NCBI GenBank assembly: GCA_951406725.2
Contig: OX597839.1
Coordinates: 13,020,001-13,084,000, forward strand
Direction: 5' to 3'
DNA length: 64,000 nucleotides
From: Octopus vulgaris
Taxonomy: Eukaryota
Every line of letters starts with the position of its first letter. The first letter of the stretch is position 1. The notes beneath the pieces are model-generated. The model was not told the DNA's origin. It saw only the letters and a list, made by a program, of their open reading frames with translations, and ran no database searches. A program made the translations under genes and the position numbers. Below, one piece after another: positions 784-34,039 of this stretch.

Positions 784-1431
784 TCTGCATCAATCCTATA
801 GGGAATTGACCCCAATAGGTGGGATGCTCTCATGGTACCATCATCCATCACCTTAACTTGATGAATAAGGTCCAAACCTGACCAGTGACACGGTCTACTT
901 CTTCAACATAGCAACATTTGCCCCCCCACGTTGCTAATTTGTCCAAAATTGCTTTTCAAGAGCTGTGTTTAGAAGTTCTAATGCACTCACCATATTCTCC
1001 TAACACAGCGTCTTCAGACTATCCCCCTTTATTTGCCATTTTCCAACAGTCTCCAAGACTTTTTGTTGAACAACAATAAAGAGCTGAAAACGTGGCTGGA
1101 TGAATTCTTCAATTCTTGTGCATATTCCACATACTGTTCATGCACTTTTGGTTATTTTTTTCCGATGAGCTTTAGTGCATGCCAGCACCGTATACAATAA
1201 GTTCATTATTATATTATTATTTGCAAGTCAAGGCCTGGCGGTTCCTGCCATCAAGGCATTGACAAGCTGGTGGAATGTTGTCAAGAAGTCTGCACAATGT
1301 AAGAAATTATATTATTGACTGATCTGTTAAAAGCATTGATGAAAAATAAGAAATTAAAATAATTGGAAAAAAAAAAAAACTTAATGAATTTATCTGACAA
1401 ATAAATATCAACAATATATTAAGCAGAAAGT

Positions 1432-1591
1432 TCAAATTTTGTAGCACTGACTTTTGCATTCCCAATCGTCATTCAATAGTCCAGCCCTCCACCCCATCCC
1501 ATCGCCATAACTTTCCGCACACATTTTTGTATACCGCAAAATAAGGTGCACGGTAAATAACCAGTGTTTAGAACTCCAACTCCATGTGTTC
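1432..1591 (-). CDS. Possible terminal coding exon of an unidentified host gene
   Basis: Pyrimidine-rich tract plus AG (1593-1592) followed by a non-repetitive open frame [52 protein letters not shown]-stop; no family recognised. Confidence 0.2.
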
Positions 1592-1712
1592 CTTTGTAAT
1601 GTGAAAGAGAATAAAGTAATATATATATGTATATATGTATGTATATATACACACAAAAATATATCGTATCATACATGCATACTTTATATATATTGAATAT
1701 ATAAATATGTAC

Positions 1713-1805
<93 letters not shown>

Positions 1806-2019
1806 CATACACATATATACACAAAAATATACCTTATCATACATATATACTTTATATATATTGAATATATAAATATGTACATATATACACACACACATAT
1901 ACATTTATATATACATCTACATATATGTATGTTTGTGTGTATACATACATACCCTCACACAAAAGTGAACAGGTAAAACAAGAGTTAATCTTAACAATAG
2001 AGTTTCTGCTGGCTATAAC

Positions 2020-2039
2020 CTCTGCTGCTGCTGCTGCTG

Positions 2040-2088
<49 letters not shown>

Positions 2089-2780
2089 CACCTCTTCTAC
2101 TGCTGCCGCTGCCACTGCTTGAGTTTCTGCTGCCTCCACTATTATCACCATATCTACCCTCTGCCCCCAAGTCCCCCCCCTCTGCTATCATAACCCCCCC
2201 CCCCCAACTCACAATCATGAGACTAAACCTTGGATAACCACCGTTACTACTACATAATCTTTGCCACCACCACTACCACCACCATCCATTAGTAATGTAC
2301 CAGTAGTCATTCAACAACTCCACCACCACCACCACCACTCCATCATGCCTCCACCACCGTTATCAGTTCTCCCCCCCCCCCTTGTGACACCATTAAGACT
2401 GCTTTGTCATATACTACAGTTAGCTAATTATACCTGACTGTTTACATGTTACCAACACCACCACCACCACCACCGCTACCACCACCATCACTACTACAAC
2501 CACTACCAATCACAGCCACCACTACTGCTACCGCGACCACGACCATGACCACCGCCCCCATAACTACTATCATGATCACCAGGACCACCATGACCACAAT
2601 CACCACCATCATCAACACTACTACAAATTCCAGAGCCACCACCACCACCACCAACACCACCAACACCACCACCACCAACACCAACACCACCACCACCAAC
2701 ACCACCACCACCAACACCAACACTACCATCATTGCTTCCACCACAAAGATTACTTACGCCACTGCTACTAACACTATTAA
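2020..2780. repeat. (CTA/ACC/CTG)n trinucleotide low-complexity tracts
   Basis: Directly visible; source of the poly-T/V/S ORFs. Confidence 0.9.
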
Positions 2781-2932
2781 CACACTGATACACCACTATG
2801 TGGTCATTGCGACCTGCTAGAAATGACTCACACCCCCTCAAATCGCAGCCTACCGTCTTATACGAAGGCAGGACGCATTAAATAATGTAGTGTTGCTTAA
2901 CAATAGAGTGGCTGATATAATACTAAGTATAG

Positions 2933-3155
2933 TAGGTACATGTATGGCTGTGTGGTAAGAAGCTGGCTTCCCAACCACATAGTTCCAGGTTCAGTTCCAC
3001 TGAGTGGTACCTTGGGTAAGTGCCTTCTGCAATAGCCTCAGGCTGACCAAAACCTTGTCAGTGGATTTGGTAGATGGGAACTAAAAGAAACCCATTGCGT
3101 ATATATATATGTCGTCATCATCATCATCATCGTTTAGCGTCCGCTTTCCATGATA

Positions 3156-5805: not shown

Positions 5806-6560
5806 CCCCTTAACATCTAAACCAGCCATATCCGGTCAAAATATTCTACCTGCTTTATGTTATAACTGGCCAGGTCTGGCCACTCACACCTACTCTACAA
5901 TGTCATTCTAAAAATAAACACACACATCAAGCTTTTGAAGCTACAAAATAATTCATAATTAATTCAATGCAATGATTACAGTTAATGGAATAATCTGAAT
6001 ATTAACCCTTTCATTACCGTATTTATTTTGAGATACTCTGTGTTTCTTTCAATTATTTTAGATATAACAAAGAATTTAGTAAAATAACTTAGTTATCATT
6101 AAGCTAGTGTTAGAAACATAAATTGTGTCTAAGGTTTGGTGGAAGATTTGAATTCAAAACTTATGAAAGAAAGACATTTGTTACCCATATTTCTGTTGAG
6201 ATGCTCTGTATTTCTTTCAATTAATTTTAAATATAACAAAGAATTTAGTAAAATAACTTAGTTATCATTCAGCTAGTGTTAGAAACATAAATTGTGTCTA
6301 AGGTTTGGTGGAAGATTTGAATTCAAAACTTATGAAAGAAAGACATTTGTTACCCATATTTCTGTTGAGATGCTCTGTATTTCTTTCAATCAATTTTAAA
6401 TATAACAAAGAATTTAGTAAAATAACTTAGTTATCATTAAGCTAGTGTTAGGAACATAAATTATGACTGGGGTTTGGTGGAAGATTTTAATTCAAAACTT
6501 ATGAAAACAAGACATTTATACTGCAGTTTCAGCCGGGTTGGTATCGAAAGGGTTAAAGGG
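5806..6560. mobile_element. piggyBac-like MITE (TTAA-flanked, CCC...GGG termini) containing a nested second piggyBac-like MITE
   Basis: TTAA at 5802-5805 and 6561-6564; related copy in opposite orientation at ~63500-63737. Confidence 0.75.
6006..6552. mobile_element. Inner piggyBac-like MITE with three ~169-bp tandem units
   Basis: TIR CCCTTTC...GAAAGGG, TTAA at 6002-6005 and 6553-6556; units start at ~6014, 6181 and 6350. Confidence 0.85.
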
Positions 6561-6860
6561 TTAAGCAAAATAAGCACATGTGTAGGATATCAAAAGAATC
6601 AGGGGGACACCACAGAAATGGTAAATGGTTAACAGCACAAAAGAAATCACTTTAAGCTTGCTAAAAAAATATTTGAAATATTGGAAGTTCCATGAGAGAG
6701 TCCTTCCCAATTGGCTGGATCCCCTTGGTGTTAATTGGAAGGCATGGAGGTCCATGTGTAATGCTGGAGTAGGATGCTGTAAGAGTGAATGCAAGAAACT
6801 ACATGAAGAGAGGAGACGTTGTCATCAACTCCCTGCAGTTGAGGTTCAGGGTCACTTTCA

Positions 6861-7206
6861 TTATTTCTAATTCTCTCCAAAGGAGACTATGGCAGTGGTA
6901 CTGGATATTAATAGTTATCGCCAAGCTAACTTGGCAGTCCAGATAAATAGGACAAATGCACCGTTGATTAGCTCCAAGAGGCCATCACCTCTAGCTAGCT
7001 ATGTGACACACAAACCTGTGTCCATTATAACCTTCGAACAGGGGAGGTCAGCAGCTTCCCCTTGCTGGTCTGGCATCCACAGACTAGTTTCGAGGTGTTT
7101 GCCTCTTATCAATGTGGAGTAGCCGAATCCAGCAGGTGTCGCTGCTGACCGACTGTTCGAAGGATTACCTAAATTCAGTGGAATACATCCACTGGTTTTC
7201 AAAAAC
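6861..7206 (-). mobile_element. Hammerhead-containing ~350-bp repeat monomer (Penelope pseudo-LTR or retrozyme-like)
   Basis: Homologous to the tandem monomer at 10073-10640; further partial copy at 7574-7637. Confidence 0.75.
7076..7118 (-). ncRNA. Minimal type-I hammerhead ribozyme, U3-A8 core variant
   Basis: Minus strand: uccaca-UUGAUAA-gagg caaaca ccuc-GAAA-cuag-UC-ugugga; 6-bp stem I, 4-bp stem II, palindromic ACUAGU stem III. Confidence 0.8.
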
Positions 7207-7636
7207 CTCCAAAAACTGTGTAACACTGGAGTAGGATGCTGTAAAAGTGAATGAAAGAAACTACATGAAGAGAGGAGACGTTGTCATCAACTCCCTGCAG
7301 CTGAGGTTCAGGGTCACTTTCAGTGCCCTCAGTGACCCAGGATATACTTATTGTGTATCGGTCTTGTCAGCCATGTTGGATCCCTTGAGTAACAATGTGT
7401 TGGAGGTGGAGGAAAATAAATGCTGTCTTGGATTAATGTCATCACCATTGATGGACTGTCATAAGCCTTCATGCACCCCTTTTCAACCACATATAATGCA
7501 GGGTAGCGTTGCATCTCCTACTCAATCAACCCCACTTTCTTTATTACTTTCTGACCCATATTCACCAAATATCATTATTTCTAATTCTCTCTAAAGGAGA
7601 CTACGGCAGCAGTACTGGATATTAATAGTTATCGCT

Positions 7637-7900
7637 AGGACATCCTCGTTGAGCTCTACAGGTCTTCCAGGATGATGTTCATCTTCCAGGCTGTAGTTTC
7701 TGGCTCCGAATTTCTGGAACTACCATTGACACTGGCTTGCACTTATTGTATGATTCCTGTATACTGCTTTAATATTCCTTGTATATTCCATTGCGCTGTT
7801 GCCTTTACTGAACTCATAGAGCAAAACATGCCAAATATGCTCCTTTATCATTTCCATTATAGCTTTGAAAAAAATAACTGTTAAAATGGAACTGCACTCT
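7637..7900 (-). mobile_element. mariner transposase N-terminal fragment
   Basis: KEHIWHVLLYEFSKGNSAMEYTRNIKAVY...SLEDEHHPGRPVELNEDV (Mos1-type HTH region) with an in-frame stop. Confidence 0.8.
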
Positions 7901-7949
7901 TCAAAACTCACACTAAGAATAAGTACAAGGTAAAATTACTACCTATATA

Positions 7950-8712
7950 AAAGGCTCTTAAACAATCTGAAAAATCCAGCAGAAGAAGATTTGATTTGGT
8001 TTTTCTCAAACGAGAAAAACTTCAACCAATATCAGAAAGTTAACAAAAGAAATGACAGATGGTTATGTGCAGACCCTTCTGAAGTTCCAAGTGTTATGCA
8101 TACCAAATTTCCAGTAACTGTCATGGTTTTAGGGGTTGTCAGCAATGAAGGACATGTGATGCCTCCTTACTTTTTTCCACAAGGCCTTAGAGTTAACTCT
8201 GCCACTTACATTGAGGTCCTGGAAATAATTGTTAAGCCCTGGATAGACAGTGTATGCAATGGAAGGCTATATGTGTTTCGGTAAGACACTGCACTATCAG
8301 ACATGGCTCTAGTAACTCAGGAATGGATAGGGAAAAATTTTCCTGATCACATAACCTCTAACATTTGGCCTCCTAATTCTCCAGATCTCAATCCATTGGA
8401 CTATTACATGTGGACCGTTGTTGAGAGAGAGGTCAATGAACACACCCGTAACACCAAAGATTCTTTGAAAGCTGCCATAGTCCGAGTAATGTCCAAAATG
8501 AACCAGGACCATTTGATTCGAGCATGTGAGTGATTTAGATCTCATATAGAAGCAGTTGTTGAAGCTGAAGTTGGCTTTGTTGAATAACATTATAGAAAAG
8601 AAGGTTTATTTTTATCCTCATAGCATTTTGTGATAAATAAAGTTATTATCTGTTATCATAAATCTGCTTTTTTATAAACATAAATCTGTCCTCAAATATC
8701 TTATGCACCCTG
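7950..8712 (+). mobile_element. Tc1/mariner (maT/DD37D-like) transposon, 3' half with right TIR; pseudogenised
   Basis: WFFSNEKNF, VMVLGVVSNEG..MPPYFF, WPPNSPDLNPLDYY.W; ends ...tatgcaccctg followed by TA. Confidence 0.85.
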
Positions 8713-9988: not shown

Positions 9989-9990
9989 AA

Positions 9991-10640
9991 ATATTAAAGT
10001 TTCTAAGTCTCTCTAAAGGAGATTACGGCAGCGTTACTGGATATTAATAGTTAATATATAATAGTAATAATAGATAAAGGGCAACTACCCTGAAACATGT
10101 CTGCAGATGTCTGACCAGCAAGGTGAAGCGGCTGACCTCCCCTGTTCGAAGGTTATAATGGACACAGGTTCGTGTGTCATATAACTAGCTAGAGGCGATG
10201 GCCTCTTGGAGCTAATCAGCGGCAGCTTTAGTCTTTTATTTATAGACTACCATATTAGCTTGGCGATAACTATTAATATCCAGTAACACTGCCATAATCT
10301 CCTTTAGAGAGACTTAGAAACTTTAATATTTCTATTTTTGAAAACAAGTGGATGTATTCCACTGAAATTAGGTAATTAAATCCTTCGAACAGATAGTCTG
10401 TAGCAACACCTGCTGGGTCTGACTACTCTGTGCATTGATAAAGGGCAACTACCCTGAAACATGTCTGCAGATGTCTGACCAGCAAGGTGAAGCAGCTGAC
10501 CTCCCCTGTTTGAAGGTTATAATGGACGCAGGTTCGTGTGTCATATAACTAGCTAGAGGTGATGGCCTCTTGGAGCTAATCAGCGGCAGCTTTAGTCTTT
10601 TATTTATAGACTACCATATTAGCTTGGCGATAACTATTAA
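9991..10640 (+). mobile_element. Hammerhead-containing 364-bp tandem repeat (~1.55 units) with a 5' inverted segment; Penelope pLTR or retrozyme-like
   Basis: gataaagggcaactaccctgaaacatgtc starts at 10073 and 10437; 9991-10053 is the reverse complement of ~10268-10330. Confidence 0.8.
10431..10469 (+). ncRNA. Minimal type-I hammerhead ribozyme, U3-A8 core variant
   Basis: ugca-UUGAUAA-aggg caacua cccu-GAAA-caug-UC-ugca; 5'-truncated twin at 10073-10105. Confidence 0.78.
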
Positions 10641-10852
10641 TATATATATATATATATATATATTTTGTTTGTGTGTCTGTGTTTGTCCCTCCCCACCATC
10701 ACTTGACAACTGATGTTGGTGTGTTTATATCCCTGTAACTTAGCAGTTTGGCAAAAGAGACCAAAAGAATAAGTCCTGGGGTTGATTTGTTCAACTAAAT
10801 GGTTGCAGTAAAAATGACTGAAAAGAATAAAAGAATAAAAGGATTAAAAAAA

Positions 10853-13004: not shown

Positions 13005-13415
13005 AGGCGGTGAGCTGGCAGAAATGTTAGCACGCCGGGCGAAATGTGTAGCCGTATTTCGTTTGCTGTTACGTTCTGAGTTCAAATTCCGCAGAGGTCG
13101 ACTTTGTCTTGCATCCTTTCGGCGTCGATAAATTAAGTTACGCACTGGGGTCGATATAATCAACTTAACCCATTTGTCTGTTCTTGTTTGTCCTCTCTGT
13201 GTTTAGCCCCTTGTGGGTAGTAAAGAAATAGGTATTTCGTCTGCCACTATGTTCTGAGTTCAAATTCCGCCGAGGTCGACTTTGCCTTTCATCCCTTCGG
13301 GGTCGATAAATTAAGTACCAGTTACGCACTGGGGTCGATGTAATCGACTTAATCCGTTTTTCTGTCCTTGTTTGTCCCCTCTGTGTTTAGTCCTTTGTGG
13401 GTAGTAAAGAAATAG
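13005..13415 (+). mobile_element. SINE family E with the internal unit duplicated (~180 bp x2)
   Basis: Head ggcggtgagctggcagaa, ctgagttcaaattcc, core gtcgactttgcctttcatcctttcggggtcgataaa. Confidence 0.82.
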
Positions 13416-13574
13416 GTTTGATTGGAGCTAATCAGCTGGGACTGGCACGAGTGCTTTATTATGTCTCTGATATGGGTACCTCAATGTGATGCCTGCACAA
13501 GTGCTTTTATGTGGCACCAGCATGGGCGTTATAACATTGCACTGGCATGGGTACTTTTTATGTGGCACTGATGT

Positions 13575-33169: not shown

Positions 33170-33765
33170 TGGCAAGCTGGCAGAAACGTTAGCACGCATG
33201 GCGAAATGCTTAGTGGTATTTCGTCTGCTGCTACGTTCTGAGTTCAAATTCCGCTGAGGTCAACTTTGCCTTTCAGCCTTTCGGGGTCGATAAATTAAGA
33301 ACCAGTTACGCACTGGGGTCGATGCAATCGACTTAATCCCTTTGTCTGTCCTTGTTTGTCCCCTCTGTGTTTAGCCCCTTGTAGGTAGTAAAGAAAAATG
33401 TATTTCATCTGCCATTACGTTCTGAGTTCAAATTCCGCTGAGGTCGACTTTGCCTTTCATCCTTTCAGGGTCGATTAAATAAGTACCAGTTATGGACTGG
33501 GGTCGATATAATCAACTTAATCCGTTTGTCTGCCCTTGTTTGTCCTCTCTGTGTTTAGCCCCTTGTGGGTAGTAAAGAAATAGGTATTTCGTCTACCGCT
33601 ACATTCTGAGTTCAAATTCCACGAAGGTCGACTTTGCCTTTCATCCTTTCAGGGTCGATTAAATAAGTACCAGTTATGTACTGGGGTCGATGTGATCGAC
33701 TTAATCCGTTTGTCTGTCCTTGTTTGTCCCCTCTGTGTTTAGCCCCTTGTGGGCAGTATAGAAAT
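33170..33765 (+). mobile_element. SINE family E with the internal 184-bp unit in three tandem copies
   Basis: Units start at 33216, 33400 and 33584. Confidence 0.88.
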
Positions 33766-34039
33766 ATATATTTTATAAGAGCTACAGAGACTTGTGGCAT
33801 AAAATCTAATCTTTGATGTCTCTCTCTCTCCCTCCTCCCTCATCTCTCTCTCTCCCCCTCCCTCACCTCTCTCTCTCCCCCTCTCTCTTAGTTCCCGCTT
33901 ATTTTCAATTCTTATTGATTCTGTTTGTGTTGTTGTTTGGTTCCAAAGAATGATTTGCTTCATGCTGCGTTGTCCAGTATAGTCCGGCTGGGCTGTCTTT
34001 GGCTTGCTCAGTGGCCACATGGAGGGACTTACATTTTCC

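Follow-up and report, generated by a model that had tools for sequence, protein, structure and literature searches.

A 362-nt hammerhead repeat of Octopus vulgaris, probably a non-LTR retrozyme inserted by Penelope-like enzymes

The window, a 64,000-nucleotide stretch of the Octopus vulgaris genome (contig OX597839.1, positions 13,020,001 to 13,084,000), holds two copies of a repeat that carries a hammerhead ribozyme, and it raises the question of what kind of element they represent and from what template they were copied. An initial annotation had described the first as a diverged, circularly permuted, minus-strand copy of about one monomer, differing from a 10-kb array by compensatory changes in all three ribozyme stems. 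We find that copy where it was placed (7205-6858), about 83-85% identical to 9989-10643; the supposed array, though, is a single insertion of 655 bp that combines about 1.6 monomers with a short inverted piece; one of its ribozymes is complete (10410-10488), and the first is truncated on its 5' side. The reading that we consider well supported is that both belong to a protein-less 362-nt repeat that contains a covarying type I hammerhead and is likely a non-LTR retrozyme, with Penelope-like enzymes carrying out its reverse transcription and insertion. The anatomy of its insertions is the known pattern of Penelope-like elements (PLEs). The features of the locus are collected in Table 1.

Table 1. 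Positions of the element copies, their parts and the surrounding pieces in the window
Feature	Position	Strand	Remarks
Subfamily B copy of the ~362-nt ORF-less hammerhead monomer	6858..7205	-	One copy; monomer positions ~2-354
Type I hammerhead	7076..7118	-	Read from the sequence and from pair counts
Palindromic helix III/loop 3, ACUAGU	7083..7088	-	Predicted trans pairing in a ribozyme dimer
Predicted self-cleavage site, 3' of C17 (7082)	7081..7082	-	Monomer position 129/130; standard hammerhead numbering
Long interrupted hairpin, ribozyme at its tip, extending helix I	7031..7163	-	Predicted fold
Optional 3' tail, monomer ~307-362	6858..6904	-	Bounded by the two fixed ends, of which the short one is at ~6905
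Upstream copy of 106-bp direct repeat	7217..7322	-	95.3% identical to 6755-6860
Downstream copy of 106-bp direct repeat	6755..6860	-	First 3 nt common to the element's end
11-nt junction filler	7206..7216	-	Belongs to neither the monomer nor the duplicated target; the W and R of the peptide are read from it
Second 3' fragment, 69 nt, subfamily B, short end plus tail	7567..7635	-	93.8% identical over 64 nt to 6858-6921
Subfamily A insertion	9989..10643	+	Inverted tail piece 9989-10053, then monomer ~98-362 and 2-306

The monomer is about 362 nt long (numbered here after a natural copy in locus L008) and has no open reading frame. The copy at 6858-7205 lacks the last ~8 nt of its tail, diverges by 2.8% from the majority of its subfamily (5-6% is general among copies) and folds stably, with a z-score of -6.7 that none of 100 shuffles equalled. 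It is a solo monomer with one ribozyme, and alone it would not yield a circle. On the minus strand, helix I is formed by 7118-7113 and 7081-7076 (tccaca/tgtgga) and is followed by the core UUGAUAA (7112-7106), a U3-A8 variant, by helix II (7105-7102/7095-7092, gagg/cctc) closed by loop 2, CAAACA, and by GAA at 7091-7089. The ribozyme thus has the conserved core of a type I hammerhead (C3-G8 or U3-A8, GAA, NUH) together with helices I-III, and TTGATAA, GAAA and GTC are indeed unchanged between the two copies in the window. Rfam gave no match at its gathering score anywhere in the window and, at E<=10 over 6800-7300, three chance matches, none of them a hammerhead, so the type I assignment rests on direct reading and covariation. 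Our own covariance model matches 7059-7135 with 104.6 bits, a score that is high by construction.

The stem differences noticed between the two copies fared unequally when more copies were aligned. The change in stem II, gagg/cctc against aggg/ccct, is as described. In stem I the pairing tccaca/tgtgga stands, but the 4-bp tgca/tgca of the other copy results from 2 inserted nt that no other of the 61 rows has, the rest of its subfamily having 5-6 bp. In stem III, ACTAGT does replace ACATGT, but only the inner two bases change, and these could pair solely in trans. In an alignment of 61 ribozymes, 57 of them distinct, 93.9% of cells are paired and 119 are changed on both sides, a result that none of 500 shuffles matched and that compares with 29-38% paired in slid controls. 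As cells are not events, fixed differences between subfamilies were tested instead. When 77 copies are clustered by 39 sites that lie outside the ribozyme, the A and B ribozyme types fall apart, and at finer resolution an additional intermediate group emerges. In the event-level test, which used 76 of the 77 copies and left out one gapped copy, subfamilies B and A differ by 39 fixed differences that include six compensatory pairs against 0.65 expected (0 of 20,000 permutations) and break three pairs against 14.5 expected. The ribozyme contains all six compensatory pairs: helix I accounts for three, helix II for two and the palindrome for the remaining one. Of the 12 differences in the ribozyme proper, 10 make up five compensatory pairs, the other two fall in loop 2, and the core has none (P 6.5e-5). 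At the first pair of helix II, G-U is found in the intermediate subfamily. Outside the ribozyme we found no double change between subfamilies, in an outer structure predicted from a subfamily B copy; pair 88-138 of the long hairpin does show a double change. The covariation amounts to about six events among three subfamilies, and at this level of subfamily change it supports the annotated proposal that selection acts on RNA structure.

The helix III palindrome bears on how the ribozyme would fold. Its cis pairs, A-U and C-G, are unchanged, and the inner pair reads UA in 30 of the 57 distinct rows, AU in 26, GU in one and is never unpaired; a third state, ACGCGT, accounts for 2 of the 100 matches listed from a total of 893. 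Because the inner two bases cannot pair within one ribozyme, this signal supports a two-ribozyme fold and not a cis stem, and the palindrome changes appear to support trans pairing between two ribozymes, a dimer fold that has been described for animal hammerheads (PMC4209133).

These copies belong to a large family. Searching the 2.8-Gb assembly (227 contigs, microsatellite-rich) for the ribozyme pattern with free stems gave 893 exact matches, with 0 for the reversed control; a pattern with a pyrimidine-purine closing pair gave 1. First-look searches with the two window copies returned 2,612 and 3,025 candidates, of which 40 were scored in each, and the scored candidates are short insertions dispersed over many chromosomes. 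The samples analysed are the best-scoring 30 loci per search, and so are not random, and distant families were sampled by patterns only. At one such locus (L164:4620-4680, G000:C1:140052128) there is another hammerhead-like motif with the core UUGAUAA, whose helix II is gcct/aggt and whose palindrome is ATGCAT; it has no similarity to the 362-nt monomer and no ORF in 9.5 kb, and is perhaps another family.

Copies used to survey insertion ends must not be picked by their ends, so we searched with the middle part of the monomer only (about positions 136-300), which gave 60 loci, or 57 once three were dropped as the same insertion. When their start and end phases are tabulated, 34 of the 3' ends lie at 301-311 and 22 at 350-363, none lies between and one lies elsewhere; two fixed 3' sites 56 nt apart therefore hold 56 of 57 ends, and the 5' ends are scattered. 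With fixed 3' ends, the outcome that the annotation had itself named as speaking against permutation, the copies are not randomly permuted. The two copies in the window, which the annotation had taken for circular permutations of one another, end at different fixed sites (the long one in 6858-7205; the short one in the 10-kb insertion, whose tail is on the inverted arm), and their differing starts reflect 5' truncation. Each fixed end falls within an AT-rich near-palindrome, at ~299-307 and ~350-362 (6905-6912 and 6858-6866 in the window); the two are alike, TATTAATA-like, and could supply microhomology to TA-repeat targets.

An adjacent 5' inversion accompanies 25 of the 57 insertions and a microsatellite 3' flank 32. 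The wider set of 109 distinct insertions (21 duplicate loci dropped) contains 54 inverted ones; both outer ends are at a fixed site in 31 of these, and 30 of the 31 combine one long with one short end (P 1.4e-8), the remaining 23 of 54 having a non-canonical outer end. The longest span is 1,143 bp. Tandem copies with at least two complete same-strand ribozymes occur in six of the 109 insertions and are possible sources. The family displays the insertion features of PLE-mobilised elements: 5' truncation, partial tandem, inverted copy, a tail on one arm and AT-rich targets. That the two window copies start at different monomer positions would suit rolling-circle insertions permuted at random, or else a satellite that DNA recombination has spread, the stem changes having arisen by chance. 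The restriction of 3' ends to two fixed sites with none in between, the rule of one long and one short end, the permutation tests and the dispersal over many chromosomes make such an origin highly improbable, unless the pattern of ends was produced by sampling the best-scoring matches.

What, then, was the template? Of the 57 insertions, 54 continue across the predicted cut site, and one starts within 4 nt of it, where the background rate of truncation predicts 4.4; in the wider set, which is less neutral, 7 of the 71 pieces start that close (one of them at 131) where about 5 would do so if starts were uniform. Since the cut is far from both 3' ends, is read through and coincides with few starts, a self-cut linear monomer is not the main template, although a small share of linear templates would be compatible with these counts. 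Each of the 17 insertions extending past the monomer boundary continues into the tail. Among 30 copies picked by their 5' part, 24 have an upstream tail by an 18-of-25 cut-off and five have a remnant of 9-13 nt by eye; only the copy at 6858-7205 is without any. These crossings and upstream tails indicate a unit closed on itself with no coding body, that is, a circle or a tandem, and, with the reading through the cut site, they make a circular or tandem template likely, two forms that genomic DNA cannot separate. The annotation had arrived at such a template from the permuted phase of the copy; the template is retained here, the permuted phase is not. Selection on the ribozyme would favour cut-and-seal. 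Assembled contigs of four runs, not recorded as RNA, match the repeat and contain go-back joints of 364; tandem DNA would produce the same, and we set these joints aside.

A sequence of steps can be proposed on this basis. In a transcript across two tandem monomers, the ribozymes would dimerise through the helix III palindrome and excise a unit-length RNA, which would likely be closed into a circle. A Penelope-like protein with reverse transcriptase (RT) and GIY-YIG domains would nick AT-rich DNA, and cDNA synthesis would start inside the monomer, either 177 or 233 nt downstream of the cut, and would cross the sealed cut site. The fuller combination of a genome-encoded circular RNA, selection on a dimeric ribozyme with three palindrome states, and copying from two internal priming sites 56 nt apart we consider somewhat less likely than not. 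The same element and the same enzymes might also work from a linear template, be it an uncleaved tandem transcript, its antisense, or a linear monomer with template jumping. Circles and tandems alike give tail-to-start junctions and reading through the cut site, spans in the sample do not exceed about three monomers, and antisense self-priming has been argued for head-to-head inversions (PMC3846280). Yet we regard a linear template as somewhat unlikely: uncut RNA leaves the selection on ribozyme and trans palindrome unexplained, full-length products would be expected to accumulate at one fixed 5' boundary, an accumulation that was not seen, and related animal elements yield abundant circles (PMC7229834).

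The surroundings of the copy at 6858-7205 show what it inserted into. It is flanked by a 106-bp direct repeat within an old dispersed repeat (6700-6860 and 7217-7466, minus strand; 170 candidates at 71-79% identity), many relatives of which start at the same point (7466). Relatives of this host repeat, about 73-77% identical, contain the 106-bp segment once, and 8 of 10 examined continue past it into the downstream flank, so that the direct repeat is likely a long target-site duplication. Among the loci examined, this copy is the only one with so long a duplication; adjacent repeats of 11-14 bp occur at 5 of 60 loci, and at most of the 60 no target duplication was found, microsatellite flanks being masked there. 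The second fragment has the same orientation and lies 350 bp upstream. At the density of the retrozyme family a chance adjacency is unlikely, and the fragment thus likely derives from a second priming within the same integration event. It interrupts broken reading frames at 7636-8400 (minus strand), which we take to resemble the N-terminus of a Tc1/mariner transposase. Elsewhere in the window, a 169-bp tandem repeat with three copies, 94% alike, occupies 6020-6517 and also matches other loci, and tandem 184-bp units, presumably SINE-like, lie at 13054-13417 and 33216-33773.

If Penelope-like enzymes insert the monomer, the copies might instead be 5'-truncated stumps, pseudo-LTR plus tail, of an autonomous PLE. 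The genome contains GIY-YIG Penelope-like frames (148 matches scored, several with 781-codon open frames), and at 6 of 30 such loci we found a hammerhead with the same UUGAUAA core and an ACAUGU palindrome, with a longer helix II and then TA repeats; these loci we assume to be Neptune-type. L067, L072 and other GIY-YIG loci form one Penelope-like family in which 781-codon open frames are numerous and scores identical, and which is therefore probably young; it has two types of 3' UTR, one with the hammerhead and one with short tandem repeats. The insertion anatomy is identical to that of Penelope stumps, autonomous elements with UUGAUAA hammerheads are thus present, and a rare parent could escape searches in which 40 of some 1,200-3,000 candidates were scored. 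Nevertheless, we judge this origin improbable. What lies upstream of position 1 is tail and never a shared coding body (17 of 17 boundary crossers; 29 of 30 with full tail or remnant), and the canonical 6-bp and 4-bp helices of the monomer differ from the long helix II of the genome's PLE ribozymes. No RT plus GIY-YIG frame upstream of a terminal repeat was found in the copies examined. A tblastn search with a native PLE protein against 120 monomer loci gave two matches, both to unrelated neighbours. What counts against our own reading is that 30 of the 148 GIY-YIG loci yielded no parent or partner similar to the monomer in sequence, and no monomer downstream in sense; core and palindrome are all that the monomer shares with them. 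Three loci considered as parents were rejected: in L079 the subfamily A copy is in opposite orientation, and in L157 and L134 the nearby PLE pieces are unrelated.

The annotation had also noticed a short minus-strand peptide loosely resembling the C-terminus of PLE GIY-YIG domains. Its F-W-R is read from 7214-7206, in the junction outside the element; in other copies the stop-to-stop frame is short and gives IFLFLKTSG.... At the natural junction, the frame reads R(E/D)LE(I/T)(M/L)IFLFLKTSGCIPL(N/K)LG(K/N) in most of 42 rows, some of them duplicates. Against an HMM of 25 native GIY-YIG C-termini, the peptide scored -0.2 bits, and 177 of 1,000 shuffles scored as high or higher (748 scored at all); controls reached 28.5-44 bits, all of them from a training set that is dominated by one family. 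With residues from flanking DNA and a shuffle-level score, we dismiss the peptide as a protein relic.

By all testable features, the 362-nt family belongs to the animal non-LTR retrozymes, though we know it here from genomic sequence alone. As described for those elements in PMC7229834, with repeats of 350-390 bp in mussel and 330/350 bp in axolotl, it has an ORF-less monomer within the range of 170-400 nt and a canonical type I hammerhead, a palindromic helix III tetraloop that needs a dimer, strongly self-paired RNA, thousands of copies, at least two ribozyme subfamilies, co-existing PLEs and larger target duplications when present. Copy number and self-pairing are represented here by the 893 pattern matches and the z-score already given. 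The mussel and axolotl elements form circles, and RtcB ligates them in vitro (PMC7229834); of the retrozyme dimers reported from Xenopus, 8 of 9 did not cleave in vitro (bioRxiv 10.64898/2026.07.22.740005). Unlike the animal retrozymes of PMC7229834, the octopus family is mostly dispersed, truncated and inverted and has a U3-A8 core, and coral and axolotl retrozymes form long arrays, against a longest span of little more than 1 kb here. Non-LTR retrozymes have been proposed to be non-autonomous PLE derivatives (PMC7229834; bioRxiv 10.64898/2026.07.22.740005), and Penelope insertions are described with 5' truncation, partial tandems, inverted copies and a tail on one arm (PMC3846280; PMC8557442). 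The resemblance to insertions of endonuclease-positive PLEs extends to the inverted 5' copy (PMC3846280; PMC8557442, Fig. 2 legend) and, in the same two sources, to the optional tail on one arm and AT-rich or microsatellite targets. The same anatomy is reported for non-autonomous PLE derivatives, namely MRC1 and its kin (PMC8557442) and the Xenopus retrozymes (bioRxiv 10.64898/2026.07.22.740005). The tail, at about 56 nt, exceeds the 30-40 nt given for published PLEs, and the duplication at our copy compares with 8-10 bp for rotifer Penelope. In contrast to PLEs, the family lacks an ORF; in 30 loci we found no parental pseudo-LTR homologous to it. As in the hammerhead of the Schistosoma PLE Cercyon, U3-A8 replaces C3-G8 and pair 15.2-16.2 with loop 3 is palindromic, but the Cercyon ribozymes are minimal with a long helix II, and ours has canonical helix sizes (PMC4209133).

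In the literature found, which lay outside Repbase, Dfam and supplements, there was no description of a cephalopod hammerhead retrozyme, and the family may already be named; a paper found on hammerheads and Penelope-like elements names octopus only for Naiads (PMC8557442). As elements of this kind are published from other animals, the copy itself is ordinary. The value of the family lies in the mechanism of Penelope-like insertion, which the published work cited here treats as unsettled, including whether or not the template is circular. The one-tail rule, the two fixed priming ends and the reading through the cut site quantify tandem, inverted and tailed insertion of the Penelope-like type, and in the covariation of the trans palindrome nature itself supplies a clean test of the dimeric model of the hammerhead. 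If the circular-RNA reading is true, the thousands of insertions would amount to direct evidence, from a genome, that Penelope-like transposition follows the circular-template model, and the 362-nt element would be a small substrate for reconstituting its mechanism.
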